The notes: generated from the sequence alone by a model not told the origin. DNA of 64,000 nucleotides from Massalongia carnosa (GCA_965645245.1 OZ287071.1:2728001-2792000), one strand, 5' to 3'. Positions 1,417-32,836 are shown, counted from the stretch's first letter. Translations and numbers: made by a program.

Positions 1417-1559
1417 GATTTGAGAATGATTGAGAAAGATGATGCATCAATTGAAAATTTCAAGATCTCATTTGATTTTTCATCTGCTAACCAAGAAAGG
1501 TAAAGTGGTGCGAAATGTGCCGGCCCTTTACCTTTTTGGGAAGAGGGTGTATATGTATC

Positions 1560-10545: not shown

Positions 10546-10551
10546 CGCGTG

Positions 10552-12130: not shown

Positions 12131-12138
12131 TGGGCCGG

Positions 12139-13343
12139 CTAGTCAATCCTTCCTATTGACCGGTGTCCAATTCGGATTGTTACGAGATTGGCTACTTGGG
12201 TTGCTATTGTTGGGGGTGTTGCCCCTGCAACTAAGTGCTGGGTGCTGTCTCCCGCAGTTGCTGCAGACGTGTTGGTTCTGCACTCTCGGCAGTCCTTGCC
12301 TGTGTTATACTGATGGCAAGGGTAGGGCCTTGGAGTATTGCTGTTTGAATTGGTTGTGTATCCCCCAAATCCGGTCCGGGTTTGAAGGTTGTTGAGGGGC
12401 CTGTCGCGTTTAACCAGGTATGTATTTTCCAAGTCTGGGTAGCTTTGCCTCCATTTTACGGGGTCGTCCAATCCTTGATACCACAGCGTTCTATGAAATA
12501 GCATATGAACTTGCAGCAACGACTCCCATGTGTAGGTATTGTGAAGCAAAATCAGCCAGTCCTCGTATTTCATGAAGGCCCTTGCTAGATCTTTGAACAG
12601 ACTTGGTTGTGCAAAGTGCAATACCGCTTGCCAGTATACCAAAAGACAACGAATTAGGTGGGTGATACCCTTGATCTCGCTCAACGATGCGTCATCCTCG
12701 CCAGTAATGACCTCCAGACCTTTGCTGATATTGATAGATTTCTTCGTAGACTTGCTCAGAGTCAGAGTAACGTCGCTGCACATCTTGGCGATATTGATGG
12801 GGTCAAACTTATTTCCAAAATTTGCTTGAAATACAGCTGGTTTATGGCCGGAAAGTCACTTGTCAGAGGGAGGATTCTTGGGTCATCCGTACCTTCGCTC
12901 TGAAAGGCCTGATTTGTCTGTTGGGATCCCCCATGCTGAAATCCAGTAGGGGCCTCCTCCACCTCCAACGCGGCCTGTTTGTCGACAATTTCCTACCTAA
13001 GCTTTCTCATTTCGGCCTGGCGCCCCTCTCGTACCAAAATGTCGCGTTGTACTTGTACGCGAAGTTCAAGTAGCTCATCAGGGGTACCGGGGCGTGTAGG
13101 CCCTTCTTCCGCTGGCTGGCCGGCCTGCATTGTTGCTGAGGTCGGCTGAGAGTCAGGCACAAGGGGGGTGAGGGGGCCAGTGGGGCCGCTATCGTCGGCG
13201 GTGGACGCAATGCGGCGGGTAGTAGGCATTCTGTTTATAGAAGGGAGTAGAGCGGAGCTAGGTTTATACATGTTTATCGAAGATGAAGAAGGGAAGAAGG
13301 ATGGATTGTTCGTTAGGTTGGAGGATTGTTGGATCGGACTCAA
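12139..13343 (-). pseudogene. gag-like ORF of the YR retroelement (stop and frameshifts)
   Basis: Consecutive ORF pieces 12993..13343, 12762..12968 and 12139..12783 end in a Cys/His finger-like region (PCHQYNTGKDCREC) immediately upstream of RT. Confidence 0.7.
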
Positions 13344-13642: not shown

Positions 13643-14051
13643 TATGTCGCTAGACAAACAGCTATGGACGAGTTGTTTGAGCTAGATGATGAAGATAGAG
13701 CAGAGTTATTCGAGCCAGAAAATGGCTTGATGATGTGTGATGAAGCTGAGAAGAGGATAGCGAACGGATGGATGGTGCTTGTGCCTGATGTGCCGGTCGA
13801 TGCATCGGTTGGGGAACTTGATGCTTGGGCTCAACTGAAGGTCAAAGGGTACAAGCTGCGAGTCCTTTGCCCAGATAGCAGACTTATGAGACAGGTGGTG
13901 TCATTCATCAGTGCTGATAACGAGCCCCACGGAAACGAAAGCTTTGGCGCGAACTAGATGGTCAACAAGTCCAGTTCACGAGTAATCATCGTCCCCGAGC
14001 TCGGTATCTCTATTGGCAATTCGCGATTTCACTTTTGCGCCAAGCCTGACT
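13643..14051 (+). pseudogene. Fungal HNH-endonuclease-like gene, middle part (5' end missing)
   Basis: QTAMDELF..ELFEPENGLMM..YKLRVL..WRELDGQQVQFTSNHRPRARYLYWQF resembles fungal HNH_2 proteins; cut by the Copia insertion. Confidence 0.7.
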
Positions 14052-15406
14052 TATGAAATATAAATTCACTTTGTAGGTATAGTAGCATGATTGTCATTGA
14101 AGGTAATTATCTATGTGGGCTATTTGTCTGCTTTATATAGCAGTTACAAAACAGTCACATCTAGGAGGTCAGACCTTGTCCCCCTGACGGTCAGACCTTG
14201 TCTCCCATCTCTGCTTGTTTAGGCACTTTGCAAGGCACCTCCCGAGGCTCATGATGGATGCCCATGATGATGGTGGCCTCATCATCTAACATCCAACACT
14301 CCCATTCAGCCATCTTGAGGCTCTCCGGATATTTTTGCCTCTTTGGGTTTAGCCCATGCCAAGCATTGACTTAAAGTCCTCAAAGGGTTTAGCGGCCAGT
14401 GGCTTTGTAAGCCCATCTGCCACCATCTCTGTGGTAGGGACAAACTTGATGCTTACCCTTCCCAATTCAACCACCTCCCTGATCCAATGCCATTTGATTT
14501 CGATGTGCTTGGTTCGACGGTGGAATTCAGGGTTTTCAGCCAATGCAATTGACCCGTGATTGTCCCCTCGAAGTAGGACAGGGGTGTCCTTCCGATATCC
14601 TAACTCGGCCAGAAATCGCGCGCACCAAATGGCCTCTTTAGCTGCTTCCGTCAGGGCCATATATTCGGCCTCGCAGGTGGATAGGGCGACGGTAGGTTGT
14701 AGCTTGGAACAGTGGGAAATTGGGGCGCCTGCTAACAAAAACGTATAGGCCCCGGTCGATTTTCTCCCATCTTTCGTTCCAGCATAATCGGAGTCCGAGT
14801 ATCCCACAATGTCATCGTCGGTGTCTTTTCTAAACACGAGGCCTGTATTTAGGGTACTGGATATATAGCGCATAATGCGCTGAAGATATTTGCAGTGTAA
14901 TGGGCCTGGGTTCGAACAATATCGACTCAGTACTCCCACTGCATAAGCGATGTCGGGGCGTGTATGCATGGCTGGCCACATCAGCGAGCCCACCACCGAC
15001 TGGTACCAGGCAATTGTTTCCTTGTCGGCCTGGTCTTCCGACGGCATGAGTGTGTTTCCGGCACCGGGGTCCATGGGGGTGGAAATGGGCCTGCAGTCGA
15101 CCATATTAAATCGCTGCAGCACCTTCTTCAGGTAAGTTGTTTGTCGAAGAGTTATAACCGATTTTTCGATGTTGACATCGACTTCGATTCCTAGATAATG
15201 GGAGACTTCTCCCAAGTCCGTCATGCGGAAACGGGACTTCAATTCGTGTTGCAATTGCTGCAATTTTGAAGTGTCTTTTCCGAAGATGAGAAGGTCGTCA
15301 ACGTAAATCGCTATAAAGATATCGTCCGATACAAAGACTCCATGATCCGAATCTGTTCGTTTAAACCCCATCTTTTGCAGAAAATCCTGCAGGGTCTGAT
15401 ACCATA

Positions 15407-17271
15407 CGGAGGCGAATCTCAAAAGTAATGATAATACGCTAAAGACTAGCGCCGTAATTTAGATTTTCCATACCGAGCCTGAAATTCTACCAACTATCTA
15501 CAAATACCATTACCAACCATCTAATCAACGTCTTTTTGGTCTGAAACTGGCTGCAGTACGAATAACCTTCTGAATGCGTGGGGGAAGGTGATTTTTCGGA
15601 GATAAAACGGCTCTTTTTCTCAATAAGGGGGGTGTCAATGGCTTCTGTGTAGGGGGCTCAGGGGTAACTGCCCTGACATTCAACGGGCTGGGTGTATCAT
15701 CATTTGATTGTCTGGATGATGGTCTCGTTGACGCCACAGAAGAAGAAGAAGAAGAAGAAGCTGGTTTTGCTGTATTACTGAGCAATTCTTCCCTCAGCTG
15801 TTGAAGTCGCATTTTTCCTTCTTTGGTCCGTCCATCAACGTCCAAACGTCCTTCGCAATACTCATTTCCACCTTCCAATTCAATGACTTTTGCAATGTGA
15901 CGTGGAATTCTTTCAATCCATGCCTGAATATTCTCCTGAGGTAGATCGTCCCAAGTGCGATGCCACATAGATTCAGCAATTAACCGAGAACTAGGAGGAC
16001 CTTTGGCAGTTGTACGTCGCTTCATCCAGGGCCAGCAGGGTTCAATCATGTTGAGATCAGGAGAATTTCCGGGCCATAAAAGACGCTCGATGCCATGACG
16101 AGAGAAGATGGGAATCTGATGCTTGGAAGCATGAGACGGAGCCTTATCTTCCTGTACGATCATTTCAGACAATCCGGCTTCTCTTCTTTTTGCATTGCAT
16201 TGCTGAGCAAAAGGAATCAGTTTTGGCAGAAGTATGACGTTTTGATACCGCCACCAATCAATGCCTCCTTTACCTTCTTTTCTGATCATCTTTCCATGTT
16301 CCTCATCCCATTTCCATTGCGGCTTTTTTCCTGGTAAATTGCGAGTTGAAAGACGTCTCATTCCATTGGTCAGCTCCCAATTTAATCTCTCACTGGCTTC
16401 CAATGCAGCATTCATCTCGTCACGCTTGGTTTTGGCTTCCGCTTTTTCCGCTTTTGTCTCCGGTTTCCAGCAATGACATGGCCCCTTCCAATCGTAGGAA
16501 AAGCATCCCCAAAACATGAATTCATGAGCCCCATGCCACCTGGCACGTACGGTGGATTTGACTGGTCTTCTTCCTTCCTTGGTTGTACGCCAAATTTTGA
16601 CAGCTCCGCGACGGTGACCAAGCACTATTGCTGTTTCATCTGACCAAATAACCCGCTTCCAATCCTCCACGGTCCAGTCTTTATACAGGAGACAAAAAGC
16701 CAGTCTAGCCGCTTTCATTTCAGGAGTAAGCCCTGGTCTATACGACGGTTTGACTTTTTTATAGCCTCTTTGTTTCAGGATTCTCCACACGGTGCATCTG
16801 GACAGTCCAACTTCTCTTGCCAACTGGGCACTGGTTTTTTCACGGGCGTATCTGTCTTTTATGACTAGATCAATGACTTTATCTTCTTTCTCAGTAGTAG
16901 CCTTTCTCGGTTGACCAGATTTTTCTTCATGACGGGCGTATTTATTAAGCACCTGCAAAGAAATGGCGGGATCAAATCCTCGATCCCTGGCAATGCGACG
17001 AATACGATAAATGTTGGGGACAGAATAACCTGTAGTAGCTGCAATAAATTCAATTGAGGCCGGGGTGCAATAAGACAACGTCAAGACCTGAGCCCGCAAA
17101 GAAATATCAGCTGATTTATTGACCATGATGATGATTTGATCAAATGTTGGTTCGTAAATGATTTGGGATGAGAAAAGGGGAAAGAAAAGGGGAAAATTTG
17201 CTCGGTACGGAAAATTTAAATTACGGCACTAGCTTTTAGCGTATTATCATTACTTTTGAGATTCGCCTCTG
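15407..17271 (-). mobile_element. Tc1/mariner DNA transposon with ~70-bp TIRs and TA TSD
   Basis: TIR c(g/a)gaggcgaatctcaaaagtaatgataatacgcta... at both ends; TA at 15405-06 and 17272-73. Removing it restores the Copia RT sequence. Confidence 0.96.
15525..17126 (-). CDS. Tc1-family DD34E transposase, intact 533-aa ORF
   Basis: VIWSDET, FMFWGCF, QEDKAPSH-(34 aa)-E in NSPDLNMIE; Ser/Pro-rich C-terminal tail. Confidence 0.93.
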   Translation of the reverse strand: MVNKSADISLRAQVLTLSYCTPASIEFIAATTGYSVPNIYRIRRIARDRGFDPAISLQVLNKYARHEEKSGQPRKATTEKEDKVIDLVIKDRYAREKTSAQLAREVGLSRCTVWRILKQRGYKKVKPSYRPGLTPEMKAARLAFCLLYKDWTVEDWKRVIWSDETAIVLGHRRGAVKIWRTTKEGRRPVKSTVRARWHGAHEFMFWGCFSYDWKGPCHCWKPETKAEKAEAKTKRDEMNAALEASERLNWELTNGMRRLSTRNLPGKKPQWKWDEEHGKMIRKEGKGGIDWWRYQNVILLPKLIPFAQQCNAKRREAGLSEMIVQEDKAPSHASKHQIPIFSRHGIERLLWPGNSPDLNMIEPCWPWMKRRTTAKGPPSSRLIAESMWHRTWDDLPQENIQAWIERIPRHIAKVIELEGGNEYCEGRLDVDGRTKEGKMRLQQLREELLSNTAKPASSSSSSSVASTRPSSRQSNDDTPSPLNVRAVTPEPPTQKPLTPPLLRKRAVLSPKNHLPPRIQKVIRTAASFRPKRR

Positions 17272-20200
17272 TACACGAGGGGATTATTTTAGGCCATATA
17301 GGGCCTTTCGTAGTAAGCAGACCTTATTCTTCCCTTTTTCGAACAAGGTGGGTTGTATGACATATATGGCTTCATCTAGGAAGCCATACAGGAAAGCAGT
17401 CACCACATCCATGTGATGAATGGACAGTCCCTTCTTTACACTGATTCCCATCAATGCCTTATAAGAGACTGGTTTTACCACTGTGGCAAAGGTGTCGAGG
17501 TAGTCCAGGCCTTCCTTTTGTTTATAGCCATGAACTACCCATCTCGCTTTGTACTTCAGTACTTTCCCATCTCTGTCTTTCTTTATTTTGAACACCCAGC
17601 GACCGGTGATCACCTTTCGATCAGTCGGTGCCTTTTCTAGTGTCCAAGTTTCATTCTCCACTAGCGATTGATACTCGGTCTCCATGGCCTTTCTCCATTG
17701 ATCCCAGTGGGGTGAGGACATAGCCTCTTTCAGTGTCAAAGGATCATCGAGGCCCTCATTGTCCTCGCCTCCTGCCAGGGTTGCTAGCACCCGCACCATG
17801 TGCTCATGGGATTTCGGGACCTGGTTTGAACTGAATACGGTGTTGATGCTGGGACGAATGTTCTCCAGTGCTCTTTGACTGGGGACCCTTATTCGTCCAG
17901 ATCTTCGAGGTTCGATGGGCTGGCGAGGAATGTCCTCCACTTCATCGGAGTCACTCTCCCCCCCATTCTCCTCTTCTCGGCCTCCCCCCGAAGCATTTAC
18001 TCCCATTGGATGTAGCACTATCCGTGGTGCTGGTGGGGCCGTTTCATTTTGAACTTCCGAACTTCTCGATATTTCAGAGCTCGGAGTTTTCGGAGACAAC
18101 GAAGATGGCGGATTATGACTTTTGTTTTCATCAACAAAATCATCTAGGTCATCAAACAAAGCATCATCGTCTCCCTCCCATGGAATTTCGGCTAGGTCCC
18201 AGGCCTTTTTGTCCTTGGAATCATATATATTGCCTTCGTCGACGGTGATATCGCGACAAACATGGACTTTTCCAGTGAGAGGATCGTAAATTCGATACTG
18301 ATTGTTTCCTTCATGCCCAAAAAATATCCCCTGCCAGGACCTATCGTCCAGCTTCTTGCGCTTCTCTTTTGGGATATGTACCCACGTCCTAGCCCCGACC
18401 GTTCTCATGTGGCCGAGGAAGGGTTTCGCATTATTCATGCGTTCATATGGAGTGACCTCGTCAACCCCGGGACTTCTATTCTTGATGTACCCGGCCGTCT
18501 TCAGGACCTCCCCCCAAAGGGACTTTGGGAGCTTTTTAGCCTTCATCATGGACCGAGTGGGGACCATGAGGGTATAATTTTGCCTTTCGGCCTTCCCATT
18601 CTGTTCTGGCACATTTGGTGCCCGGGCCTCCCACTGGATGCCTTCACTCTTTAGGAATTCCTGGAAGTCACCACTGGTGTACTCCCCTCCTCCATCAGCT
18701 CGGAGTCTCTTTATTTTCTTTCCCGATTGATTTTCTATCCATGTCTTGAACTGCTTAAAACATTCGAAGGTTTGACCCTTTGTTTTCAGCAGGTAGATCC
18801 ACAGTACCCCGGAGAAGTCGTCTTTCATCGTAGCATAAAAACGTTCACCGAACCTTGTCAGTGGAAATGGTCCCCCTAAGTCGCTATGCACTATTCCGAG
18901 AAATTCTGTTGCTCGGGTTCGTGGAGTGCGATTTATTTTCCGCTGTTGTCTTCCCATCATGCATGAGCCGCATACTTCTTCTGGTATGGGTCCTTCGATG
19001 GTGACTCCATTGGCTAAATGATTTAATTTTAGGAGGTTTGGGTAGCTGAGATGGCCGAGTCGTTCGTGCCATGTTTGGATAGGGGCCTTTGTACCGTTTG
19101 TGGTGGTGAGGGCCCGTGCTTCGGTAGGGCTAATAGTGGTTGTCTGCAAAACATACTGATTATTTATTGTTTTGGCCAGTCCAACCACCTTTCCTTTATG
19201 CACCAGTTGAGCGGGCTTGTCATCCGCCATCAGGTACGTAGATATGCCCTTTTTGCCGAGTTGTATTGTGCTGATGAGGTTAAATTTTAGGTCGGGGGCG
19301 AAAAGAACGTTGGTCAAAATGAGGTCCGTTACACCTCCATTTCCATTGTCCAGTGATACGAGTAGAGAGCCTTTCCCCTCTGTCGATAACACCTCTCCGG
19401 AACCTGTTTCTAAACAGCTATTTTCGCTCCGAAAGGTCCCTTCTTGAAAGAGATCTTTATTGCATATAATGTGCGCGGTGGCACCGGAGTCGATCAATAG
19501 ATCGTGGGCATTCTTGGGACCTCGGTACAGATTTGCCATACAAATAAGCGGTGTTTCCTGGGTTCTTTTCCCGGAACATTCCCTTATTGTACAAACTATT
19601 TGGGGGTTTGAGGTTTCATTACCTTCTTTGCTTTCACAAACGCGTTCCAGATGGCCAATCTTACTACACTTCCTACATGTAGCGTTGCTATGCCTGCATT
19701 TTCCGGAGTGATTATAACCACAGCATTTGCATTTGGTCTTACCCCGTTCGGTGGGGTTCTTCTTCCCCTTTGCCTTCAGCATGTTAGCTACGGCGACAGG
19801 GTCCTGGCGCATACGAGCCTCCTCGTCCTCCAGGTTTTTTAGTAAGTCATCCAACGCCGGGAATTTGTCCTCCCGCCGAGCTTGTTCGTTCAGGATGGTC
19901 AGGTAGGTGTTGAATGAACTGCCGAGTCCATTGAGGAGTTTGAGCACTACAATGTGCTCAACGGTCAGGGCCATGTCGGTGATTTCGGCCTTGATATCCC
20001 TGACTAGGCTACCATACTCCTCGATGGTCTTGCATTTTTCATAGTTTATCTCCTCCAGCCGGTTGAATGTGCTCCATTTCGCACTCCAATTTCTGAGGGT
20101 GTATCGGATTTTCAGGTGTTCCCAAAGGTCCTTCGGGTCCCAGATGCCCCCACTGGCTAGGTCTCTCATCGATAAGAATTCCTGTTGCACGTCATCTGTG

Positions 20201-20934
20201 CACATCTTGCCTATTTTACCAACTACTCTCCTTTGTTTCTCCGAGAACTCTAGGCGTTCAAGGTCCCGTTTGTCCCGCTTTTCTAGCTGTTCCTCTGTTT
20301 CCTCCGGGGGTGTCTCATCAGCTTTTTGAGGTGGAGGGGGAATTTCTCGAGGCATTTCCGAGCACCAGTCACGTAGTTCCAAAGTTCCGCCTCCTGCAGG
20401 GCGAAGGCCATGTCTCTGGACCATTTCTTATAGTTTCCACTCCCCATTAGCTTTGGGAATGTGTATAGACTCTCCCCTTTGGCCATCGTGCTTAGGAGTA
20501 GGGGTTACTGAGCGGGGAAAAAAAGAGGGTCCCTTTGGTTGCTTGGATTTTTGAAGTGGGATATGAAAAGGAATATATATATAATATAAAATGAGGTAGG
20601 TGGAAGAGGTGGAGGTGAGTTTTTTTGACAATCAATGTAGGGGCTTATTCAAACGTAGTAGAAGTGAGCCGGGCTCATAACCTATGAAGTATAAATTCAC
20701 TTTGTAGGTATAGTAGCATGATTGTCATTGAAGGTAATTATCTATGTGGGCTATTTGTCTGCTTTATATAGCAGTTACAAAACAGTCACATCTAGGAGGT
20801 CAGACCTTGTCCCCCTGACGGTCAGACCTTGTCTCCTATCTCTGCTTGTTTAGGCACTTTGCAAGGCACCTTCCGAGGCTCATGATGGATGCCCATGATG
20901 ATGGTGGCCTCATCATCTAACATCCAACATGACT

Positions 20935-21239
20935 AACTGACCACAGAAAGAGTAATCCAGTTGCTGCAGAATTTGACAAGCGTTTCTAGGGCACGAGAGG
21001 CCGTTGGATCAAGCGGAAGTACTTGCTTAGGTTTGCAGAATATCTTGATCACGCTGTCGAATGGAAAAACTTAGTGGAAGCTGCCATCCGACCCTGAAGG
21101 ATTGGTGTTAGCATCGGAGCAGCTGCGTGTAACGAGAAAGAACTTAGCTAAGGGCTGGGTAAAGAAGGATGAGGATGAGGATGAGGATGAGGATGAGGAT
21201 GAGGATGAAAACGATAGCGAGCACAAGGAGCTAGAGTGA
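20935..21239 (+). pseudogene. 3' part of the HNH-like pseudogene with (GATGAG)n acidic tail
   Basis: Continues in frame across the Copia TSD: LRQA*LTDHRK..RF*GTRGRWIKRKYLLRFAEYLDH; ends (DE)n..ELE* after a frameshift. Confidence 0.7.
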
Positions 21240-21634
21240 TGGCTGCATATATGAGCTGAAGGTTTAGAGCTTGCATACAACGGAATCCAAAGGATTTAGG
21301 TTGAAATATCAAAGTTATCATGTCTTAACTACCTGACTGAGTTCTTACAACGCACAATGTTCTAACACGTATTATTCGTAATAAGCTCACCTAGTTCTAT
21401 TCCCAACCCATGAAACGAGTACTCTGTATAGATTTGCTTCGAGTCGTAATGTTCATTTGTGTTGGCGGTGACCGACGTTTGCGACCAATATCACCATGCC
21501 AACGGTTCGTGAATACAAAATATTCTGCCAACTTCACAATAAGTTCCCCCCACTTGTCTATTAAATGCCGATGCTTCCATCTTAATATTTATCACGTTCA
21601 TTCTCACTCCATTCACAGCGATATTCCACTCAAA

Positions 21635-24136
21635 ATGGAGTCTCTCACCGTCGCCGAGCTAAGAGAGCTTCTTCGGCGATCAGAGCAAAATCTCGAAAAT
21701 GAGCGAGTTTCTCGGGAGCAAGCTGAGAGACAACTTCGCAGCACAACTCTGCAAGCTGAGAGACAACTTCGCAGCACAACTCTTCTCGAGTTCTTAGATG
21801 CAGCACATGTTAACTTCTCCATGAATATGAAGGTGCAGATGAATAAAACATTGGCAACTAAAGGCGATCCCTCTAATGCCGACGGGAAACTTTGTCCAAG
21901 GCTCATTAAACCATGGATAGAATTCAACACCCAACAGAAGGCTACGTGGCAACAACTTGAGGAGTTGAGCAACACTATCAAGTCTTCGCGAGTTTTCAGC
22001 ACACTGGCTTACTTGGAGGGGTCCGAGTTTCAGTTTGAGAGGATGATCGCATCCGAGAAGGATCTAGAATTTTTCGAGCGATACGCTGTCGAAAGCCAAG
22101 TCTCTCAGATTATTAAACACTTTAGCACCGACCCTGTAATCAAGGAGAAACTGCATCTGAACGGTGGAGTGGTTTTTGAAAATCACCAGAACACTTTAAG
22201 CTTCGACGACCCTGAAGTTGCCAGCCGCATGCATCAGTTAAGTCTACAAACACCTCGAAAGGATTCTACGAAACACAATCCGGTCATGGCAAGAGCTCCC
22301 GAACTCGTACTAAAGCATACGGATCAGATGTGTGTATATAACGTGGCAGAGGGCCAGAACATTGTGTGTTTTATTATCGAGTACAAGGCCCCCCATAAGT
22401 TAACTCTGGCACACTTGAAGGAGGGACTTCGGCCCATGAATCCGATGAAGGACCTGATGCAATGCCCAAATATTCCGAGCAAAGACCAGGCCGAAGCTCG
22501 AGTTGCATATCACTCTGGCCTTCTCGTGGCTGCAGTCATCACGCAAGCTTTTTCATATATGGTGGAGAGCGGGTTACAGTTTGGTTACGTTTGTACGGGA
22601 GAAGGCTTTGTGTTCTTAAATGTGCGACCCGAGGACCCAACAACGGTATACTATCATCTGTCTATTCCCAACATCGATGTTGGTTCCAGCACCGGGTGGT
22701 CCCCTGACTCTACAGCACCGAACCGTTTACATTTGACAGCGCTTGGGCAAGTCCTCGCATTCACTCTCCAGACTTTGCAACAGCGGGCTCTAGGAGCTGA
22801 GTGGATTGGCAAGGCGAAAGGAGTGCTCGACAGATGGGTGGTTGACCCTCAGTCAATACTGGCACAAATCCCCGAATCGGTGCGCTTAGAGATCGCACAT
22901 TCCGAGTTCAAGCCTACGACACGGCGACAAGAACTTCTCGCCTTTCACTCTCCCCGTTTTCTTCGTTCTAAAGCTGAAAGCCTCCGCCAATTCGATTTAG
23001 ATGGAGTAAATGTGGATGACCAAATGAGCTCGGGCGATGATGAGGATGATGATAAACACGGCGATGGAGATGAGGACAAAGATGATGATGTTGATACTCC
23101 AAGTAGGCAATCAGGCCGGCCCCGAGACTTCAAAAAATCTATGGCCCCTCGCAAGCGCTACGACACCAGAAACTCGGGACTACGTGTAGCGTATTGTACA
23201 CAGCGCTGCCTTCGTGGCTTGTTGATGGGGGGCATCCTTGATAGAAATTGTCCTAACCATCGGCGTCATCATAAACACGGCGACTATCACTCCATCACTT
23301 CGGAGACCTTTCTTCTTCTCGTCCGACAGCAGCTCTTCAAGAACCTTGACGCTGGCTGCTACCCTCTCTATGTGCAGGGTTCTCGGGGGGCTTTGTTCAA
23401 GGTGCAACTGCTCTCACATGGATACACCGTTGCGGCTAAGTGCACTATATACGCGTACGTCGAGGACCTCATTCACGAGGGGGAGGTGTACAAGCAACTC
23501 GAAAAAATCCAAGGTATTCACATTCCGGTATGCCTTGGAAATATTAACCTGGAGAGAATATACACCTTCAATTGCGGCGTACAGATTGTTCACATGATGC
23601 TCATGGCCTGGGGCGGATCACGTATTGACAGTCCATCGAGTTTACCAAAGCTGCAGCTGGTGACGAAGCAAGCGATTCACGCGATTCACGCGATCCACGA
23701 ACTTGGTATCCTGCACATGGACGTGTCGCCGCGCAACATTCTGTGGAGCGACGAACTCCAACGGGTCATGTTCATCGATTTCGAAAGAGCGGTAATCAAG
23801 ATGCCTATGCCTCCGCTCACCGCCAACAGCGCTCTAATGCTCAATTCCCCCAACCCCAAGCGAAAATGGGGGTGCGAGGCCGAGAAGAACATGCTGCGTA
23901 TGACTTGCGAAGAACCGGTTTCGGGCAGGACGGAGTTTCGGATTTTCACCGAGAGGACTAAGGTGGAGGCCAAGGATATGTTACTTGTAAATTACACGGA
24001 GCAGGATCCAGACATGATAGAATTTCGGGTTTTAGCTGAGGAAGAGGACACGGGGAATGAGGTTCATTGGAGCCAACCCTTTTCATCGGAGATAAAGTAT
24101 CTGAAGCGGGAACTGAGAAGTCTTCAAAAAGCTTAA
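21635..24136 (+). CDS. Spok-family (spore killer-like) nuclease-kinase protein, ~833 aa, intronless
   Basis: N-terminal coiled coil; TTLLEFLDAAH, TKGDPSNAD, SEKDL..F, FENHQNTL; nuclease TDQMCVY..IIEYKAPHKL; ITQAFSYM..FGYVCTGEGFVFL; acidic linker; C-x3-C-x13-C-x5-H-x6-H cluster; kinase GSRGALFKV, AAK, HMDVSPRNIL, IDFER. Start ATG placed at MESLTVAEL; the ORF is open from 21410. Confidence 0.85.
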   Translation: MESLTVAELRELLRRSEQNLENERVSREQAERQLRSTTLQAERQLRSTTLLEFLDAAHVNFSMNMKVQMNKTLATKGDPSNADGKLCPRLIKPWIEFNTQQKATWQQLEELSNTIKSSRVFSTLAYLEGSEFQFERMIASEKDLEFFERYAVESQVSQIIKHFSTDPVIKEKLHLNGGVVFENHQNTLSFDDPEVASRMHQLSLQTPRKDSTKHNPVMARAPELVLKHTDQMCVYNVAEGQNIVCFIIEYKAPHKLTLAHLKEGLRPMNPMKDLMQCPNIPSKDQAEARVAYHSGLLVAAVITQAFSYMVESGLQFGYVCTGEGFVFLNVRPEDPTTVYYHLSIPNIDVGSSTGWSPDSTAPNRLHLTALGQVLAFTLQTLQQRALGAEWIGKAKGVLDRWVVDPQSILAQIPESVRLEIAHSEFKPTTRRQELLAFHSPRFLRSKAESLRQFDLDGVNVDDQMSSGDDEDDDKHGDGDEDKDDDVDTPSRQSGRPRDFKKSMAPRKRYDTRNSGLRVAYCTQRCLRGLLMGGILDRNCPNHRRHHKHGDYHSITSETFLLLVRQQLFKNLDAGCYPLYVQGSRGALFKVQLLSHGYTVAAKCTIYAYVEDLIHEGEVYKQLEKIQGIHIPVCLGNINLERIYTFNCGVQIVHMMLMAWGGSRIDSPSSLPKLQLVTKQAIHAIHAIHELGILHMDVSPRNILWSDELQRVMFIDFERAVIKMPMPPLTANSALMLNSPNPKRKWGCEAEKNMLRMTCEEPVSGRTEFRIFTERTKVEAKDMLLVNYTEQDPDMIEFRVLAEEEDTGNEVHWSQPFSSEIKYLKRELRSLQKA

Positions 24137-24711
24137 GGGTTGGTTTGAGAGTGAGTGCGTTTGCTGCTGCGGTTGTTTGTCTGAATCATTTGGTATTCAA
24201 GTGTATTCATGGAGTTTAGTAGATACCTCAAAGGCGTTGTTAGTTTTATTGAAGATAGTGCAAGTTTTCAAGAGCCGTGATCTTGGCTTTTATGTAGGAT
24301 ATAGGCACACATAAAAGTAATTCTGCTAGGGCGAAAGGTAATGCGGGGACCGAGTGGAGGCAGGCCGTAGACAGCCGACGGAGGCCAAAGTTCGAAGGAG
24401 GATGATGCCCAAAATAGTTGGACAAGCAAGGGAGAGAAAAGGTCATAAATAGGTGGCCTTTTGGCACTCTTCTCCTCATCATCACCATTGATTCGGAGTT
24501 CAGCACCAAAAGGTCTTTTGCCCACCCACCCACTCCCTGAATCATCCGCATAGGTAGATGGAGTTTTTCCCTCACTGCTGCCAAAACAAAGCCATTATAG
24601 GAGGGGCCGTCAGCAAAACTGAGCGCCAGCAGGGCAGCGAGGGGAGAGTTGACCCAACATAAATAGAAATTATGTATATGTTCAGCTGACACGATAGAGC
24701 CCGCGAATTAC

Positions 24712-24733
24712 CACACACACACACACACACACA
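24712..24733. repeat. (CA)n microsatellite
   Basis: About 11 CA units. Confidence 0.9.
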
Positions 24734-25661
24734 GATGTAAAACCGAAAAACTCACCAGAAGGCGATTAAGGAGACGGAACTCCCTCTGTAGAAAGCTGAA
24801 AGACAAGTCAGAAGCGAAGAAACCGAGAACCAAATTCAGAAAGCTACATGAAAGCCCTGATGCTGCGTGCACGCCCGGAGCTTGCTATGTATGTACATGT
24901 AAATACACCCGTTTGCAAAATGGTGTGCCGAACTTTGAACCCCGAAACTGCGCGGTGAAAAAAAAATAAGAGACAGAAGTGGACCACACACCAGAATTTG
25001 GTACACTACCTAATAGCCCTTCTCCCCTTCATATCGCCCTTTGCAGTCTATAGAATAGTACGGTTAATGATATCCTTTTGATTGTCGTTTGTATGAACTT
25101 TCAACGTATTTATTTTAATCATCATGCCTCGAAAACAGCCTCCTAAACAGCCTCCAAAACAGCCTCTCATACAGCCCTTCAAACAATCCAGAAAACGGGC
25201 ATCTACTACTAAATTGCCTAGAAACTTAGCATCTTCATTCAAACAAAGACTTAGAATGAATTCTTTTAAATCATCATCATCAGTTTTAAATTCCTGTATT
25301 CCTGATCTTTTATCACGTTCATCTTCATCACCTCCTTCAGCTTCTTCTTCGACTTCTTCTTTATCTTCTCGTCTCGTCTTCTTCGAATCAAGAAATGTTC
25401 GACTCGCAATAATGCGCCTTCTTCTTGTCTTTCATTATCTAATGCTTCTGAATCTGAATCTGAAACTGAGCCCGAGTTTGTTTTGTTTATTCTAATGACA
25501 AAGACAATGTTTGAAGCGGAAAGATGAATAACGAAGTTAAAACGACTGTTACAGCGGTACTCAGTACTGCTAGCCAGCGGGCGCAATGCATAAGCGTCTA
25601 AGTAGATACGGTGACGTACTCGTACCAGGCGCGGGGCACCTATATATAGCGTAATAAGCGG

Positions 25662-25707
25662 TAGTGTCTACATAGGAGAACTACCATAGTAGCCCTTTGG
25701 CTCAGTG
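25662..25707. repeat. 46-bp dispersed repeat, copy 1 (copy 2 at 47645..47690)
   Basis: tagtgtct(a/c)cataggagaactaccatagtagcc(c/t)tttggctcagtg; 2 mismatches between copies. Confidence 0.85.
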
Positions 25708-25765
25708 TTATGGCTATGGTATTATGATATCCATATAATGCTGAAAACGTCAAGCCCAGGCTTAA

Positions 25766-25872
25766 CGAGATGCTTAGGGACGTACAAGCTAGTAATGCAA
25801 CTGCCAACAGCACATTAAACTCTTTTCGGTTTAAATCGTATGACGTGTTTATTGCTACTAATAATTACCCTA
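25766..25872 (+). mobile_element. Isolated terminal fragment of the MULE family at 27275..32429
   Basis: cgagatgcttagggac + caagctagtaatgcaactgccaacagcacattaaactc...ttattgctactaataattaccct matches the reverse complement of 32306-32429 joined to 30538-30554. Confidence 0.8.
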
Positions 25873-26339
25873 ATCGTGCTAAACCACTTTCGGAATGGAA
25901 GAGCATCCCTTATCGACGATGATGGAAAGAAGTATGAGGTGCGTCCACGACTTCAGCGAGATACATCTTTTCGTCTCCTTTCGCACGCGCTGTTGTCTCG
26001 CGGTATCGATGTTCGGCCAGGCTGGTGCTGTAAGCGGATTCAGTCTTGTCGGCGTAGATTCGGATCGCGACACAAGTCTCCCGGAATACTTCATAGATGG
26101 GATTTGACGCCTTAGCTGCTTCAAGAGCACTGTTGACTTTTCTGATCAAGACATCCGTAGGCTGGTTGGCGAAGAAAAGAACCGACTTGGAAAAAGCGAG
26201 TGAAAAGGAAAGGCAATCAGTAATTAAAGAGGCGTGGAGTACAATTAAATTAATCTAGATTTTTGCTTTAATTTTGGTGTGTATTTTAAGAATTTCATTC
26301 TACGAGTTTGATCCCACGAGTTATGTCTCCTTACGACTT

Positions 26340-26760
26340 TTATTCCCCCAGGGCTTTTGTCCCCTCAGGGACTTTATTTCCCCAGGGCTTTTATTCTCGC
26401 AGGGCTTTCATTCCCTCGGGAAACGAAAGCTCTGAGAGAATAAAAGCTCTGGGGAAATAAAATCGCTAGCCAAGAAAAACGCCCAAGGCTTTGAAATGAC
26501 TGAGGCTTTTTAGTCCATATTTATTTCAATCACTACTCCCTTTCAGTCCCTACTCTCGTCTAATTCCTACCCACTTCCAGTCCCTACTCCCTTTCAGTCA
26601 CTACTCTCTTCCAGTTCCTATGCTTTTTGAATTCCTACTCCCTTCCAGTCTCTACTCTCTTTCAGTCTTCACTCTCTTTCAACGTCTACAATCTTTCAGT
26701 CCCTTCTCTCTTTCAATCCCTACCCTCTTTCAGTCCCTACGCTTTTAAAGCCCTACTAGT
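26340..26760. repeat. Degenerate ~17-bp repeats forming a foldback (26373..26462), then a ~17-bp pyrimidine-rich minisatellite
   Basis: ccccagggctttta-type units followed by their inverted copies; then ~13 units resembling cagtccctactc(c/t)ctt. Confidence 0.75.
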
Positions 26761-27411
26761 CCTCACCCCCTTTAGCGATAATATTTAACTTTAACTTTTA
26801 TGAAAAGCTTCATTCGCGAGACACTTGTCTCCGTTATATTAAGTGTAAAATATATCGTAAAACACGGATGAGTCTATGAAATGTTTCATTTACGACGTTC
26901 AGGATTTTAAATAATGAGGGGTTTATAAAAGGATCTCATGAAAGAGGATTGGGAAAGAACTTTTGGGTCACCGGAGGATTAAATGATGACGTCTATTAAT
27001 AACAAGTGCCGGTGCTAAATGAAGAAGAAAGATGAATCAAATCCTTGAATACTCCGCTGGATTCGAGCTAAACCGTAATAGAAAACAGATATTTCACGCC
27101 GCTGACACGAACAATTATCAACAGTTAACAAAAAGATAAGAATTCTCTGTTGACTGCACACACTGAAATGCAAAGACACTAACTAACCCCGTAAGAGCCT
27201 TGCACTACTAGAAGAGAGCTTTACCATAGCAATGCCTCTAGTGATAATCTTTCGTGCTTTCTATAGCTTTGTCTCGAGATGCTTAGGGACAGTCCCCCTG
27301 TGTAAATCTTTACTAGTAAACAGCCTTTTTACTACTCATCCAGGGTGCGTACAAGCTAGCATACACTACGTATTAATAATGTTGCTGTTACTGACTAAGT
27401 GTATTCCACAC

Positions 27412-30384
27412 CTACAAATCTACCGATTGCGATGACTTCAACTCCAAAAACTCGTCAGCCAATTGCGATACATCATCTTTTCTAGGCTTCATGGTTTTAG
27501 CCACCTTTCTCATCGCCGTTTCCTTTCTCGCTTGAGCCCTAGCCTGTTTGACTGATTTCTCGACTCTTTGCTGAGATTCCAACTCCAACTGAGCCTTTGA
27601 TTTCTTCGCCACACCCCGAGACCTTCGCGTTGTTGCAGAGGAAGTAGGGAGAATTTGACTGGCGCGCACGTTTTGGCTAAGACTATAAAGAGATGGAGCC
27701 GGCGCTGCCTGAGGTAGGGCTTTTTGACTATGCTTGGCAAGCACATCGTCATATCTTCGAGCGAATCCGACGAGGCTTCTGATGTAAGAATAATATCATT
27801 TTCGTCATCCGAAGGAAGCATAGGATCCATAGAACGACCGAGAATGGGCTGAGTGCTTATATACTGCACCTCGTCATCGTCGTCGCAGACGATAGACGCG
27901 TTTTCGATTCTCTCCATAACTAAGTTTTCTCCTAAACCTATTGTACCCAATATTAGCCGACCCGAGCGCAATAACTTTGCAACATCGTGAGTTTTACCTT
28001 CTGTTTCACCTTCAACCTCATCGTCGCCCCCAGCATGCAATCTATTATATCTAAGCCTCCTCCCTTGTTCAATAGAGTCCCTTCGCCTAGTACGTCGCTG
28101 TTCAGTTTCTCTAGCCTCAGCTGCCTCGCGACCAGTATAGGCACGTCGACGACTCCCTCCTTTCTTATACATGAGGTTTTCTTTGGGCCGAATTTCGTCG
28201 GGGAATGTGGTGGGGATGAGAGGTCTTACCAGCTCCTTCTTTGCCATTTCTTATGAACTTTTCAACGATGTGAGCATGCTCGCGAGCGTACTCCTCCCTT
28301 CGATGAGAATCTTCTATTGATTGCTGCAGGTCAATAGGTTGATATGCCACAGAATGTAGCAAATCAAGGCCCCCGCGGCGAAATCTATCCTCACTCAACA
28401 CGCCTTCTTCGAGCTCGACCTCATCCTTATCCGCCTCAATCTCTCCCGTCCCTTCGACCTCATCGACGATCTTTTCGACCTCGGGCTCCGAGCCGCGAGC
28501 GAAATCAAAGGTCATTTGCCAAGAGACCGCATAAGGTGGGCCATCAAAAAACCAGCAGGGGTGGATGAGGGAAACGGGAATAGGGACCTAGTCGATGATG
28601 CATTTATACAACCAGCATTTGCATGGGAGACCCAACTCACAATCATAAACACAGCTTCCACCATCAGGGACAATAGAAAGGATTCGTTCAGCTAATGATT
28701 TGGCGGCATCTAGTTCTCTTGAAACGAGGCCAATGGCATGTTGCGTAATTTTCCCATTGAGTAACGTAAAATCATTTCTATCGATCAATCTAGGATTGCG
28801 TATTCGCTGTTGATTGCACAAAATCCTGATCTAATTGTTTTTTCCGCACCTCATCACATATTTTCTGCACCGATTGTCTTATAGGAGTATTTCTATTGGT
28901 CACATTTTTAACCAATGAATGTAGACCTTCTGAACGCTGTGTGCTGTGTGCGCCTAAAGTAGGGAGTTTAGTAGTATATGCATACACGAATTGAATTTCT
29001 TGACGTTGATAGAAATTCATGAGATAATCCTGCGAAAGAGGTAGCGTTAGCAGTAGCCCTAACTCGCTTGAAATTTAATTTGATATATCACTACTAACCT
29101 TTTCTGCGGGATGAAGTTCATTCAGCAAATTTCTTCGTCTCTCACCCAACTCATCAATAGTGAGGGTTTTAATATAATCCCAAATCAGAGTCTTCAGCTT
29201 TTTGCGCACTTCTTGGGGATATTTTCCTTCCTTGATCAGTCGTTTTTTTATTGCCTCGGCCGCATGCCACGTGCACAGCTGCAAAACGCATCTCTCCTCG
29301 TCCGCTTTCATCGTTGATTGGTTTAGATTTTCGGCGACCTCTCTTGCAATGGTCAATGCAGCATCGAGATCAATTGCCGGAGCTTTAGCTTTTCTTTGCA
29401 TGGCTACAGTCAACCCAGCTGCAAAATCCCCGAGAATCACCCTAGGCCCGGGGCAATCATCATGAAAAATCAACTCTTTCCATACATTTGAAAATAAAAG
29501 TGAAACATTCGGCCGATTCAGAAGTTATATAGCAATAAGCGACGGGAAACGAAAGGTCGGTGTTAGTGATTCCAACCAAAACGGATAAAGGCAAGTTCAA
29601 TTTATTAGTATTGAACGTTGCATCCGTTTCTAATAAAAACCCACCCACGAAACGTCGAGCCAGCCTAATTTGCTCTGCATTGTAAAAAAAAAAAAATTTT
29701 CTATCACCCGTCTCTCACGCACATTATTCTTATCAATATATTTTTCCTTACACCGTACATGAAAGCCCCTTCTTTCAACGAGCCCAAGGCAAAAAGAAGC
29801 TCTTCTTCAGGCGTGTGAGCTCCCTCCGAATGAGCGAGATTATAATAATCGCTCCTCGACAGACGGAGTCCTTGGATTCCTAATATTCTCGCTGCTTGGC
29901 CATATTGGGTTGACGATGCACGGAGACTCTTCCCTTGATCTAGGGCATCTGTTCGATCAGGGTCCCTACTATGATATTCTCTGAATGCAAAGGGATCAGT
30001 GGCCATCTCATGATTGTGCTCGCAGTTAGTGACTATTAGTCTCCATGCATTGTCTTTGTGTTTTTTGAGACGGAGGCGATAAGGGCACTCATTGAACGAA
30101 ACTTTGGTATTGGCTCGCACCCGGTCTTCCTCTTCTACTTTTCTAGTGTTTCTAACTCTTTTGTGGTGGCGTGTGCAGTCTAATACGATTAAATGGTTTT
30201 TCTTATCGTGAGTTTCTGTGACCAACGCGAAGCCTTCGGTGAAGGCATAGTCTTGAAGACGAGTCTTTTCCTCCTCCCAAGACGAAAATAACTCATTCTC
30301 TTGCGGAGGGAGGAGGTGAGGTGGGGGTAGAAGGGCAATGGCATGTTGTTTCCGTGCATCCAAAGAAGTGGGATCGAACTCCAT
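27412..30384 (-). pseudogene. MULE transposase (FAR1 + MULE), multiple frameshifts
   Basis: GFALV..CTRH..CPYRL..HNHEM; ETDATFNTNKLNLPL; VILGDFAAGL; LQLCTWH; STQRSEGLH; GLPCKCW. Probable intron near 29030-29097. Confidence 0.85.
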
Positions 30385-30554
30385 CGCGATGAGGAGTAGT
30401 AAAATATATAATATGAGGTATAGCATAAGTGGAAGGGGAGATTTAGGGAGGGCAAAGGGTTAGGACAAGGGCAAGGGCAAATGGTAAGTGAAGGTGAGGG
30501 TGAGGGTGAGGGTGAGGGTATGCTTTATCAGACTGAGTAGGGTAATTATTAGTA

Positions 30555-32305
30555 CAGTCAGATCGGGTTATAAGAAACTGCTGATTAAGAAACCTCGGCT
30601 AGTAAGAAACCCGGACGAAAAGACCGGTTTTTTTCTGGTGAGGGATAAGAAACCTCGCTCTATTAGAAAGTTTCTTAACTTTCTCTAAAAATTTTGCGGT
30701 GGTTTCTTATAGTAAATATGACTTCTCCTTCGACTTCATTGAGATATAATAGTCAAAATCCGGAGACTCCATCTCGAAATCCTTGAAAACGTCCTACATC
30801 CCCGCTTTCTTCCAGAGAGAGAAGCAGAAAAAAGCGTGACGCCTTTACCGACGACCAACGACGAGCATTACGGCAGCGTTACCAAGATCCTGCTGTATCT
30901 AGAGAGGACAAGAAATACGAAAAACTAGCCGTTTGGTTTGACAATCTTTACCGTCATAAAATTGACAAAGGACAAGTTTCCAAAATCCTCTCACATAAAT
31001 GGGCTCATCTGGATACATCTCACGCATTGCTACGCCCGAATCTGAAGAAAACTCGAACTGCGCATTGGCCTGAATTAGAAACGGCCTAATTTGAGTGGCA
31101 ACAGCGCATGCAACGCAAAAGAGCGCCTTTGTCGGGCGATTTGTTAAGAGAAATGGCCTTGAAATTTTGGAAACGATTACCTCTATATCGTAATCAACCA
31201 GCTCCCAGGTTCTCTATTGGATGGCTGGATTCTTTCAAAAGAAGATACAAGATTACAAAACATAAACAACACGGCGAGCTCTGTTCCGTCAAGCGTGTGG
31301 AGGTTGAAGAAGAGCTAGAAGTAATACGGGTACAGCTATTATCATACGATCAGGAAGATATCTACAACATGGATGAAACTGCGTTATTTTGGAAGGCTAC
31401 ACTCAGTACTACATTGGCTACGGAACAGCTCTCAGGCGGCAAGGTGGAAAAAGCAAGAATTACTGCAAATTTCTGTTGCAATGCTACTGGAACTCACAAG
31501 CTTCTCATATGGTTCATTGGGACGGCCAAAAATCCGCGTGCTTTTGGTTCACATGGTGTTCACGCTTGTAACCTGCATATGGTATGACGCAATAACAACA
31601 GAGCTTGGATGTCGGACGATATATTTCGGGAGTATTTACGCTGGTTTAATGGCAACGTAAGTCGTAAGGTTGACTGAAATCTCGTGTAATCGGGGCAAAA
31701 TAAGGGCCAATGACTCGAGAAGAGGCAGAGAAATATGGCTATCTCAATGAGACTCGGGCACAAGAGCAAGAAACGGAGCAACGACTACAGATACAAGCTA
31801 CAATACGGCGTTTGGAAGACCATGGTCATATACAAAGCGCCATGCGTATTGGCGAATTTCTGAACCCTGTTGAAGAGGTGCTAGAGGATAACGAAGAGGA
31901 TAACGAAGAGGATAACGAAGAGGATAACGAAGAGGATTTGAAGGATCACATCGTTGCTATATATGGTGATCATGAAAGGGAATACGAGACGGAGGAGAAG
32001 GAGGTCATTGTATCACGTGTTCAAAACAAGGACGCTCTACGAGCTCTTGAAACGTTACGGTTATATGAGGAGCAACGAGAGGTCGGTGACGATGATTTGA
32101 TACGTCGTCTGAATCGTAAAGAGTGAGATATCAAGACCTCAATGGCGATTAGCTCTAGGCAAGCTGTAATGACGGATTTCTTTGTCATTAGGTAGTCGAT
32201 AGGTATAGTCTTGAAAATATGCCAAGAATTTTGATATTAGAAACCTTGCCTAATAAGAAACCTAGATGCTACGATTTTGGAGTTTCTTATAACCCGATCT
32301 GACTG
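30555..32305 (+). mobile_element. pogo/Tigger (CENP-B-like) DNA transposon, internally deleted
   Basis: Perfect 25-bp TIR cagtcagatcgggttataagaaact; TA at 30553-54 and 32306-07. Transposase remnant FSIGWLDSFKRRY, IYNMDETALFW, CCNATGTHK, with stops. Confidence 0.93.
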
Positions 32306-32836
32306 TAGCAATAACACGTCATACAATTTAAACCGAAAAGAGTTTAATGTGCTGTTGGCAGTTGCATTACTAGCTTGCACCCTTTACACAGGGGGGGACG
32401 GTCGGGGGGGACTGTCCCTAAGCACCTCGCGAATACTCCCAACCTTGTTGTCTCCAAGCGCTAGGATCGGTGTAAAGTGAAGAGAGAGGCGAAGGGATCA
32501 TCATCGAAGCGCTGATGTAGAGTCACTAAGGATCGTTCTAGTTACTCTGTACTCTTCTTTGATCGTTGTTTTTGGCAATAACGATATCATGCATTTCTTG
32601 AGATGGCATGTTTGGATGTTCGAGGACACTTGCCATGGTGCCAGGATCAACGAATCACGGCTTTGTGTTGTATGAATAATGTATTAGCGAAAGCGCCTCC
32701 ACGTCCTTTTCTGACCACGAAACACGCAACCCGGCGCGTGTGGGTGCGTGGGGGCTCAACTCGTCTCTCTTGTCTCTCTTTTCTGGTCGCAATCCGATCA
32801 GCGACGCAGGCCTCGACATTACACGATCTATCCTTA

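Follow-up and report, generated by a model that had tools for sequence, protein, structure and literature searches.

In a 64,000-nucleotide stretch of DNA from the lichen-associated ascomycete Massalongia carnosa (GCA_965645245.1, OZ287071.1:2728001-2792000), referred to here as the window, an uninterrupted gene that very probably belongs to the Spok family lies among transposons. The gene encodes a protein with a predicted coiled coil, a putative nuclease, a Cys/His cluster and a short kinase core, and it is a candidate single-gene toxin-antidote. Coordinates are 1-based within the window, the standard genetic code was used, and the window protein is designated P0001. The gene, the only Spok copy found within the window by tblastn, has the following parts.

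21003..21634, plus strand: non-coding 5' portion of the repeated Spok unit (putative promoter/5' untranslated region), from its sequencing-depth class, which equals that of the gene body, and from frame-breaking indels in other copies
21635..24136, plus strand: Spok-family coding sequence, 833 codons plus TAA, intron-free, from the open reading frame and full-length homologue alignment (for example, residues 15-773 of the homologue P0004)
21650..21769, plus strand: N-terminal long helix, predicted coiled-coil region, residues 6-45 (AlphaFold2 helix, predicted local distance difference test score (pLDDT) about 90)
21718..21783, plus strand: perfect 33-bp tandem duplication in the coiled coil, 11 codons QAERQLRSTTL x2 (TRF: period 33, 2.0 copies, 100% match)
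21770..22186, plus strand: domain 1, residues 46-184, modelled as packed against the nuclease domain (pLDDT mostly 84-96; structural matches span domain 1 and nuclease)
22319..22888, plus strand: putative PD-(D/E)XK nuclease domain, residues 229-418 (conserved columns; VIA-align)
22889..23179, plus strand: disordered acidic linker, residues 419-515 (pLDDT 27-36)
23192..23290, plus strand: Cys/His cluster, residues 520-552, C521-x3-C525-x13-C539-x5-H545-x6-H552 (conserved columns and spacing)
23300..23824, plus strand: predicted short kinase domain, residues 556-730 (Pfam Kdo; Foldseek; VIA-align)
24071..24130, plus strand: conserved C-terminal helix, residues 813-832 (AlphaFold2, pLDDT 87-95; the consensus keeps F..E......EL)
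24134..24136, plus strand: stop codon TAA, which is AAA (Lys) in other copies, these ending 4 or 6 codons later (T>A in contigs of other copies)

The coding sequence sits in an open frame at 21410..24136 (+) that would give 908 residues counted from its first ATG. The ATG at 21635 is the likely true start, since the close homologue P0003 begins at the equivalent Met, and three further homologues (P0004, P0005, and P0008) begin within a few residues of the coiled coil. Among these proteins and P0002, the upstream Met is used in the P0002 gene model only. The 75 in-frame upstream codons are without counterpart in the homologues of other species and recur only in this longer P0002 model. Moreover, in other copies this stretch has gained 1 nt at 21562 or lost 38 nt (21548-21587); because these indels break the frame, the sequence upstream of 21635 appears to be non-coding. 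An (AGGATG)7 microsatellite lies at 21166-21208, 430 bp 5' of the start codon, and resembles the GAT/GAG-rich DNA at 23015-23098 that codes for the acidic linker (repeat family D2).

From 21635 the frame runs for 833 codons with no intron and no internal stop to the TAA at 24134-24136, as an earlier reading of the sequence by itself (the sequence-only reading) had proposed. The position of the stop varies between copies. Specifically, position 24134 is A in all covering contigs of the sequencing runs X1 and X4 and T in run X5, and the C-terminal ends read QKA* in the window protein, QKAKGLV* in P0003, and QKAKGLVWE* in P0002.

Protein modules and family membership

The full-length AlphaFold2 model (pLDDT 74, predicted template modelling score (pTM) 0.70) contains folded segments at residues 1-184, 229-418, and 516-730, plus the C-terminal helix 813-832. 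Residues 185-228, 419-515, and 731-809 are modelled as disordered, with pLDDT below 50 at 201-228 and 419-515. Three folded modules and two disordered linkers also make up the layout of SPOK3, whose coiled coil lies within the first 40 residues; its domains span about 40-170, 210-400, and 490-700, with residues 170-210 and 400-490 as linkers (Vogan 2019). The SPOK-like domain order claimed in the sequence-only reading therefore agrees with the modelled modules and linkers, and the claimed coiled coil is borne out by the predicted helix at residues 6-45 together with the 33-bp repeat, which is variable between copies. Like Podospora SPOK1-4, the window gene is a single intron-free open reading frame with transposons alongside and two disordered linkers, and its predicted parts follow the same order: variable-repeat coiled coil, domain 1, PD-(D/E)XK nuclease, C-x3-C-x13-C-x5-H cluster, and short kinase.

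The window protein carries all 15 diagnostic residues, five each in the nuclease, the Cys/His cluster, and the kinase. The nuclease residues are D230 (in HTDQ), E249-Y-K251, and Q304xxxY308, and those of the kinase are K602 (VAAK), E615, HMD at 694-696, N701, and DFE at 715-717. In a 66-sequence alignment, D230, E249, Q304, Y308, K602, E615, D696, N701, and D715 are among the invariant positions, and K251, C521, C525, C539, H545, and H552 are each conserved at 90% or more. Across 326 family proteins, the column counts are 309 for D230, 313 for E249, 316 for K251, 323 for Q304, and 305 for Y308 in the nuclease, and 326 for K602, 324 for D696, 324 for N701, and 321 for D715 in the kinase; all 15 residues are kept together in 274 of the 326. 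The D..EYK, Cys/His, HMD..N, and DFE motifs named from the sequence are accordingly present, and they are no chance matches, because the same columns are conserved across the family. The spacing C-x3-C-x13-C-x5-H is uniform across the listed spacing classes (293/326 proteins), with a last gap of 3-10 residues; this gap is x6 in the window protein and x7 in Podospora SPOK1-4. The distance from D230 to K251 is 21 residues, as from D219 to K240 in SPOK3, and QxxxY lies 53 residues past the Lys here versus 54 in SPOK3 (Vogan 2019).

The kinase part matched only kinases in Foldseek (MSK1, 6.8e-7; Rio2, 1.2e-6). In VIA-align, Rio2 ranked first (Z 14.2, root-mean-square deviation (rmsd) 3.5, 162 residues aligned), with many protein kinases tied within 1. 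The Pfam match of the protein is confined to the kinase core at residues 649-724 (Kdo, 24.6 bits, cut-off 21.3), and the Pkinase score of 25.2 bits falls under its Pfam cut-off. Because only about 160-185 residues align, the model indicates that the C-terminal part is a short kinase core, a property of Spoks already remarked upon (Vogan 2019). It resembles the small Rio/Kdo kinases in this short core and in its reduced C-lobe, and differs from them in being preceded by the Cys/His cluster. A sequence search of the PDB returned weak kinase matches only (best E 0.0015) and no solved close relative.

A separate model of residues 46-420, covering domain 1 and the nuclease, reached a pLDDT of 84.3 and a pTM of 0.86. 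Its VIA-align matches were led by BpuSI (Z 9.4, rmsd 3.8, 156 aligned), DrdV (7.4), and HsdR of Vibrio vulnificus (3h1t, 6.8), and also included SgrAI, BsaWI, NgoMIV, EcoR124I HsdR, NucC, and Hjc. We take 18 of the 20 top rows to be restriction-endonuclease-like, judged in part by their titles. HsdR 3h1t is likewise the best HHpred match of SPOK3 (Vogan 2019). Since the structural matches cover both domain 1 and the nuclease core, they suggest that domain 1 packs onto the nuclease module. The window protein shares with type I and IIG restriction enzymes (HsdR 3h1t and 2w00; BpuSI 3s1s) the predicted restriction-endonuclease-like fold, the D...ExK triad, and QxxxY. Unlike them, it has no helicase or methylase partner and is fused to a kinase, and the two sides share 11-15% identity at Z 5.9-9.4. 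When SPOK2_N proteins were excluded, an ESM Atlas search with residues 46-420 gave scores of at most 0.79, which is chance level.

The homologue search returned 175 proteins, and the Pfam statements cover the 120 listed. Family PF27653.1, which is SPOK2_N (ESM Atlas, Pfam 38.1), was found on all 120 listed homologues, including P0002 and P0003, so that the label is known from the homologues and not from P0001 itself. Among the nearest ESM Atlas clusters, with 52, 2593, and 422 members, SPOK2_N occurs in 95-99% of members. The listed identity to the window protein is 93% at 100% coverage for P0002 and 95% for P0003. An exhaustive phmmer search over 1.84 billion representatives matched 2504 of them at E≤1e-3, of which 1623 reached E≤1e-10 and 723 reached E≤1e-30. 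One of these clusters (P0276), which includes a protein of Microsporum canis CBS 113480, matched residues 11-730 at E 5.3e-92 with 32% identity. The names among 14 family representatives looked up belong to dermatophytes, Aspergillus, Seirophora, and Icmadophila; no Podospora or Fusarium Spok sequence was found among the proteins of the phmmer clusters examined or the representatives looked up. Screening the 326 family proteins for SPOK3-like numbering and a D-E catalytic loop likewise yielded no verified SPOK. The same family goes under the name 'meiotic drive suppressor kinase' (IPR052396) in the Fusarium study (PMC12693581).

A maximum-likelihood tree of 70 rows (quick search, LG+G4) places the window protein together with P0002 and P0003 at a support of 100. 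Nesting outward come two proteins at 54% identity, a group with Sticta canariensis, and then Ptychographa and Lepraria. Together they lie in a 12-row clade, also with support 100, whose named members are all Lecanoromycetes; lichen proteins of Umbilicaria, Psora, and Thelocarpon fall outside it. The Podospora SPOK1-4 proteins thus belong to another class than the window clade, which is Lecanoromycetes-only among the named rows. Taken together, the assignment to the Spok family and the intactness of the gene are supported by SPOK2_N on the homologues, the SPOK3-like architecture, the predicted nuclease and kinase folds, and the synonymous bias described below, and we regard membership in the family as highly probable.

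Variation among the copies

Near-identical copies (95-97% amino acid identity) occur in another assembly and in lichen sequencing runs. P0002 and P0003 are two distinct copies in one assembly, each listed on a contig of 3,767,895 bp; relative to the window protein, P0002 shows 39 differences over 814 aligned residues and P0003 shows 24 over 749. The coiled-coil repeat is present as two units in the window protein, one unit in P0003, and a shorter form in P0002, and a 1444-nt contig of run X4 skips exactly 33 nt (21718-21750), that is, one repeat unit. Another copy carries an in-frame 3-nt deletion at 23045, in the acidic linker. Repeat number, central in-frame indel, and stop position all vary between copies, a driver-like pattern; Podospora and clade II Spoks likewise differ in the length of the 5' repeat, in central indels, and in where the stop lies (Vogan 2019). 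The variants here are mostly synonymous, unlike those of the Podospora paralogues, which have many replacements.

The gene was found in samples labelled with three organisms and in a run labelled 'lichen metagenome', and the copies from two organisms and the metagenome are mostly at least 95% identical in DNA sequence. Run X6 had a word share of 0.38. Within run X1, several variant sites stand at partial depth, and the gene contigs have depths of about 1800-2300 against about 800-1000 for apparently unique flank contigs, i.e. about 2-3x, which fits a few copies per genome, depth not being equal to copy number. Near-empty runs (X7-X12) were considered as signs of presence/absence polymorphism and were not counted, since neither species nor coverage is fixed for them.

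Among the 19 listed variant sites of the coding sequence, 11 are synonymous, 7 are replacements, and 1 is the stop change. Synonymous changes thus make up 11 of 18 substitutions, against an expected 25% (binomial p = 0.0012). Both listed indels of the coding sequence are multiples of three (3 and 33 nt), compared with 1 of 11 in the flanks. Relative to P0002, replacements affect 5/139 residues of domain 1, 4/190 of the nuclease, 0/40 of the Cys cluster, and 5/175 of the kinase, as well as 10/96 (acidic linker) and 10/79 of the long disordered parts; the rate is 0-3.6% in folded domains versus 10-13% in disordered linkers. As the synonymous bias, the in-frame indels, and the linker-biased replacements all agree, they point to copies that behave as working genes under constraint, and the window gene probably still encodes a working protein. 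Five more indels and one more joint exist beyond the listed variants.

The P0003 gene model is without the Cys/His cluster (window residues 456-528), and the gap is bounded precisely by two KHGD strings. Either the annotation has a false intron here, or there is a real deletion between short repeats; if the deletion is real, the P0003 copy would be without a hallmark of the family. False introns are often found in gene models of Fusarium Spoks (PMC12693581), and the earlier claim that Spok genes are often mis-annotated is in line with both that study and the P0003 model. The window gene further resembles FuSpok1/FuSpok2 and the F. oxysporum Starship spok in having near-identical copies and in lying in a transposon-rich, fast-evolving region.

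Transposon surroundings

The gene is surrounded by a nest of transposons, as the sequence-only reading had described, with Mutator-like (MULE), DIRS-like, copia, Tc1/mariner, and pogo/Tc5 elements and three gypsy elements. The neighbouring features, with long terminal repeats abbreviated as LTRs, are given below.

382-1446, minus strand: MULE, from a domain scan
2813-6098, plus strand: NLR gene, with an AAA_16/NB-ARC frame at 2813-3751 followed by a TPR_10/TPR_12 frame at 3759-6098 (Pfam)
9471-12855, minus strand: DIRS-like stretch of three consecutive frames, with RT_RNaseH at 10552-11421 and a weak Phage_integrase match at 9471-10448 (E 5.7e-4)
14049-20929, minus strand: copia element with LTRs 98% identical (LTR pair 14049-14298 / 20680-20929; copia domains)
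20680..20929, minus strand: the copia LTR that borders the Spok gene on the left, at very high copy in sequencing runs
24219..26400, no strand assigned: right-hand border of the gene, made up of high-copy repeats (24219-25223 and 25425-26400), from a depth jump
29704-30459, minus strand: MULE-like AFT/FAR1 fragment
31090-34520 and 45998-47122: pogo/Tc5 pieces
39960-46013, 48591-54227, and 55182-61385: gypsy elements with LTR pairs 100%, 99%, and 100% identical

In the sequencing-run contigs, the stretch 21003-24218 has its own moderate depth between very high-copy repeats. Specifically, the depth in run X1 is 100-600k in the left copia LTR versus 2-7k in the gene, and at the right flank it rises abruptly, with about 3.7k giving way to 157-400k. 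The repeated Spok unit therefore measures about 3.2 kb and consists of the gene with about 630 bp on its 5' side and about 80 bp on its 3' side. No terminal inverted repeats flank the gene. An X1 contig joining 20916 to 25547 was considered as an 'empty site' and rejected, as one side has 27 letters and both sides are high-copy repeats. The open reading frames in the right-border repeats (24219-26400) have no Pfam match. Also in the region 24219-26800 are a minisatellite with about 13 units of 17 nt (26524-26740) and a near-palindrome of 49 nt (26367-26467).

The claim that most of the neighbouring transposons are broken stood in part. A Tc1/mariner element at 15525-17228, itself retaining a 567-residue frame, splits the copia pol into 14349-15458 and 17284-20427, and several DNA transposons are fragments. 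On the other hand, four LTR pairs in the window are 98-100% identical, and the gypsy element at 55182-61385 keeps long gag (408 residues) and pol (1309 residues) frames, from which it follows that the nest appears young and not decayed. The near-perfect LTR pairs of the three gypsy elements point to very recent insertion. Signatures of repeat-induced point mutation (RIP) are absent from the gene and the window transposons; for the gene, TA/AT is 0.65 and (CA+TG)/(AC+GT) is 1.24.

Such young surroundings would also suit a recently duplicated, unused passenger, whose frame remains open for lack of time to gather disabling mutations, and Spok-like genes are often pseudogenes (Grognet 2014). This explanation seems very improbable: the synonymous excess, the in-frame indels, and the concentration of replacements in disordered linkers are unlike neutral drift, and an 833-codon frame without a stop has kept every diagnostic residue.

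The 9471-12855 stretch, whose frame at 9471-10448 is the only recombinase-like one among those scanned, has the domain order of a DIRS-like tyrosine-recombinase retroelement, which speaks against a Starship captain; GC content climbs to 55% at 8001-10000. The frames scanned in the 64-kb window, 23 of at least 200 residues and 19 shorter ones, gave no match to a DUF3435 captain, and Starships can exceed a window of this length. Unlike for Podospora SPOK1-4, no Starship or Spok block was seen in the window. Upstream of the NLR gene, the frames at 1924-2767 have no Pfam match. Within the NLR gene itself lie 11 repeat units of 126 nt in tandem, most of them sharing 92-96% identity with one another; such homogeneity of repeats is typical of fast-evolving fungal NLRs.

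Proposed poison-antidote action and its significance

In the mechanism proposed by analogy with SPOK1-4 and FuSpok1/2, the N-terminal module, comprised of domain 1 and the PD-(D/E)XK nuclease (D230/E249/K251), would damage DNA and act as the poison. The C-terminal Cys/His cluster and short Rio/Kdo-like kinase (K602, D696, N701, D715) would neutralise the toxicity, acting within one molecule as well as in trans. Retention of the gene would let cells or spores survive and its loss would kill them, and the outcome would be either spore killing in heterozygous asci or an addiction-like retention of the carrying region in vegetative growth. For the window protein we infer nuclease activity, kinase activity (phosphorylation-dependent protection), toxicity, and transmission bias; killing, resistance, and drive are proven for Podospora SPOK1-4, while the window gene is a candidate. 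To our knowledge, Spok genes are the only meiotic drivers with poison and antidote in one protein, and those tested so far are only the Podospora genes and a few from Fusarium.

The division of labour asserted in the sequence-only reading, with the nuclease needed for killing and the kinase for resistance, agrees with the experiments on SPOK3, in which K240A loses killing and keeps resistance, and D667A and the 1-490 truncation are toxic and rescued by the wild type (Vogan 2019). SPOK1 has been described as killing by targeting DNA and, with a mutated resistance domain, as toxic in E. coli and yeast. Among the Fusarium homologues, 2 of 6 became toxic in yeast after mutation of the resistance domain (PMC12693581). 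In addition, a Fusarium Starship spok is reported to limit the loss of a dispensable chromosome via killing that needs hyphal fusion (bioRxiv 10.64898/2026.10.04.756499). A vegetative toxin-antidote role besides the meiotic one has been proposed for Fusarium Spoks, as it is here. The Fusarium genes have been assayed in yeast or in the fungus and their accessory-chromosome or Starship context is documented, which sets them apart from the window gene.

We put the probability that the window gene is a working single-gene toxin-antidote, as a whole, at roughly 0.55, judging from the evidence above. It is doubtful that the gene distorts meiotic segregation today. Equally tentative is the wider proposal that it represents one copy of a Spok lineage that is actively multiplying and restricted to lichen-forming Lecanoromycetes, whose poison-antidote would kill ascospores or hyphal compartments losing the gene and whose presence in the differently labelled samples would be due to spread by drive or transfer.

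Several points weigh against the toxin-antidote reading. The best Z of the nuclease half, 9.4, compares with a best background of 7-8 as stated by VIA-align, and Foldseek with the model of domains 1 and 2 gave no match at E≤0.001; because Z is just above background and Foldseek was empty, the fold evidence for a nuclease is moderate, and the conservation of the motifs carries most of the strength. No Podospora or Fusarium protein appears among the 120 best listed matches of either the window query or a Metarhizium rileyi query, so identity to SPOK1-4 is probably low. The link to the proven Spoks rests on the Pfam family name, published numbering, and the species counts of Grognet. The window clade is lichen-only, with 35-45% identity to other classes. 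The variant sample is small and pre-selected, with 127 sites beyond the 19 listed in the coding sequence, and it mixes alleles, paralogues, and possibly species. Furthermore, whole Spok clades may not drive (Vogan 2019), and 4 of the 6 Fusarium homologues, including NECHADRAFT_82228, were without effect in yeast (PMC12693581).

Two further points on the same side concern the window copy itself: it stops 4-6 codons before P0003 and P0002, and its codon 324 (22604-22606) is GGC for Gly, where 98% of 64 relatives, as well as P0002 and P0003, have Ala in a T-G-E-A turn of the nuclease. Both would suit an attenuated or resistance-only allele, in which the antidote works, killing is weakened, and the protein protects against sister copies. 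Spok2 of Podospora strain A is such a case, its nuclease-domain changes abolishing killing and keeping resistance (Vogan 2019). We consider this unlikely for the window gene. D230, E249, K251, Q304, and Y308 are intact, the exchange of Ala for Gly is mild, and the stop comes only after the whole C-terminal helix (813-832). Moreover, Gly324 is the sole form in runs X1 and X5, with Ala in X4, which marks a lineage variant and not a lone lesion.

The results on the homologues that may not drive or kill would also be expected if the gene were a conserved, non-selfish nuclease-kinase with a host role in DNA metabolism, allorecognition, or defence, its copies having been duplicated within a region rich in transposons. 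Any functional enzyme could be under purifying selection with its catalytic sites intact, the family, with 723 clusters at E≤1e-30, is very large, and the NLR gene lies 15 kb away; clade I homologues in particular are deemed probably not drivers (Vogan 2019), in keeping with the four Fusarium homologues that showed no yeast toxicity. A host function is, however, known for no Spok, and deletion of Spok2 in Podospora was without phenotype (Grognet 2014). The near-identical copies, variable coiled-coil repeat, and shifted stop form the pattern considered that of likely drivers (Vogan 2019), and the site between high-copy transposons matches the literature on Spok-like genes (Grognet 2014). A host role of this kind is possible, and we hold it to be clearly less probable than a working toxin-antidote.

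As a toxin-antidote candidate, the window gene belongs to a known kind. Apart from two basal classes, all major classes of Pezizomycotina have Spok homologues, which are patchily distributed and adjoin transposons; they reach up to 11 copies per genome, the number found in Microsporum canis, and many are pseudogenes (Grognet 2014). Their spread across Pezizomycotina was restated in Genetics 2025 (PMC12693581). The Spok-like genes of Pezizomycotina, such as those of M. canis, are direct sequence relatives of the window gene and are likewise patchy, multi-copy, and uncharacterised; the M. canis protein differs in its 32% identity and in its clade. Because Spok-like genes beside transposons have been described across Pezizomycotina since 2014, and the family comprises hundreds of clusters, the newness of the present gene is modest and consists of a clade restricted to lichens that bears signs of constraint and of recent turnover of copies. 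A literature search found no study of Spok in lichens or Lecanoromycetes: the Lecanoromycetes matches only cite a Spok title, the lichen matches examined were 'Spokane' and 'spoke', and the supplements of Spok papers may list lichen members.

In plant pathogens, recent work has linked Spok genes with the maintenance of accessory chromosomes and giant transposons. As it stands, the window gene is one more annotated member of its family. If the reading of spread by drive or transfer is true, the lichen symbiosis, a group without classical genetics, would gain its first described selfish killer system. A well-preserved, apparently multi-copy lichen Spok makes the question of drive testable where laboratory crosses are impossible.

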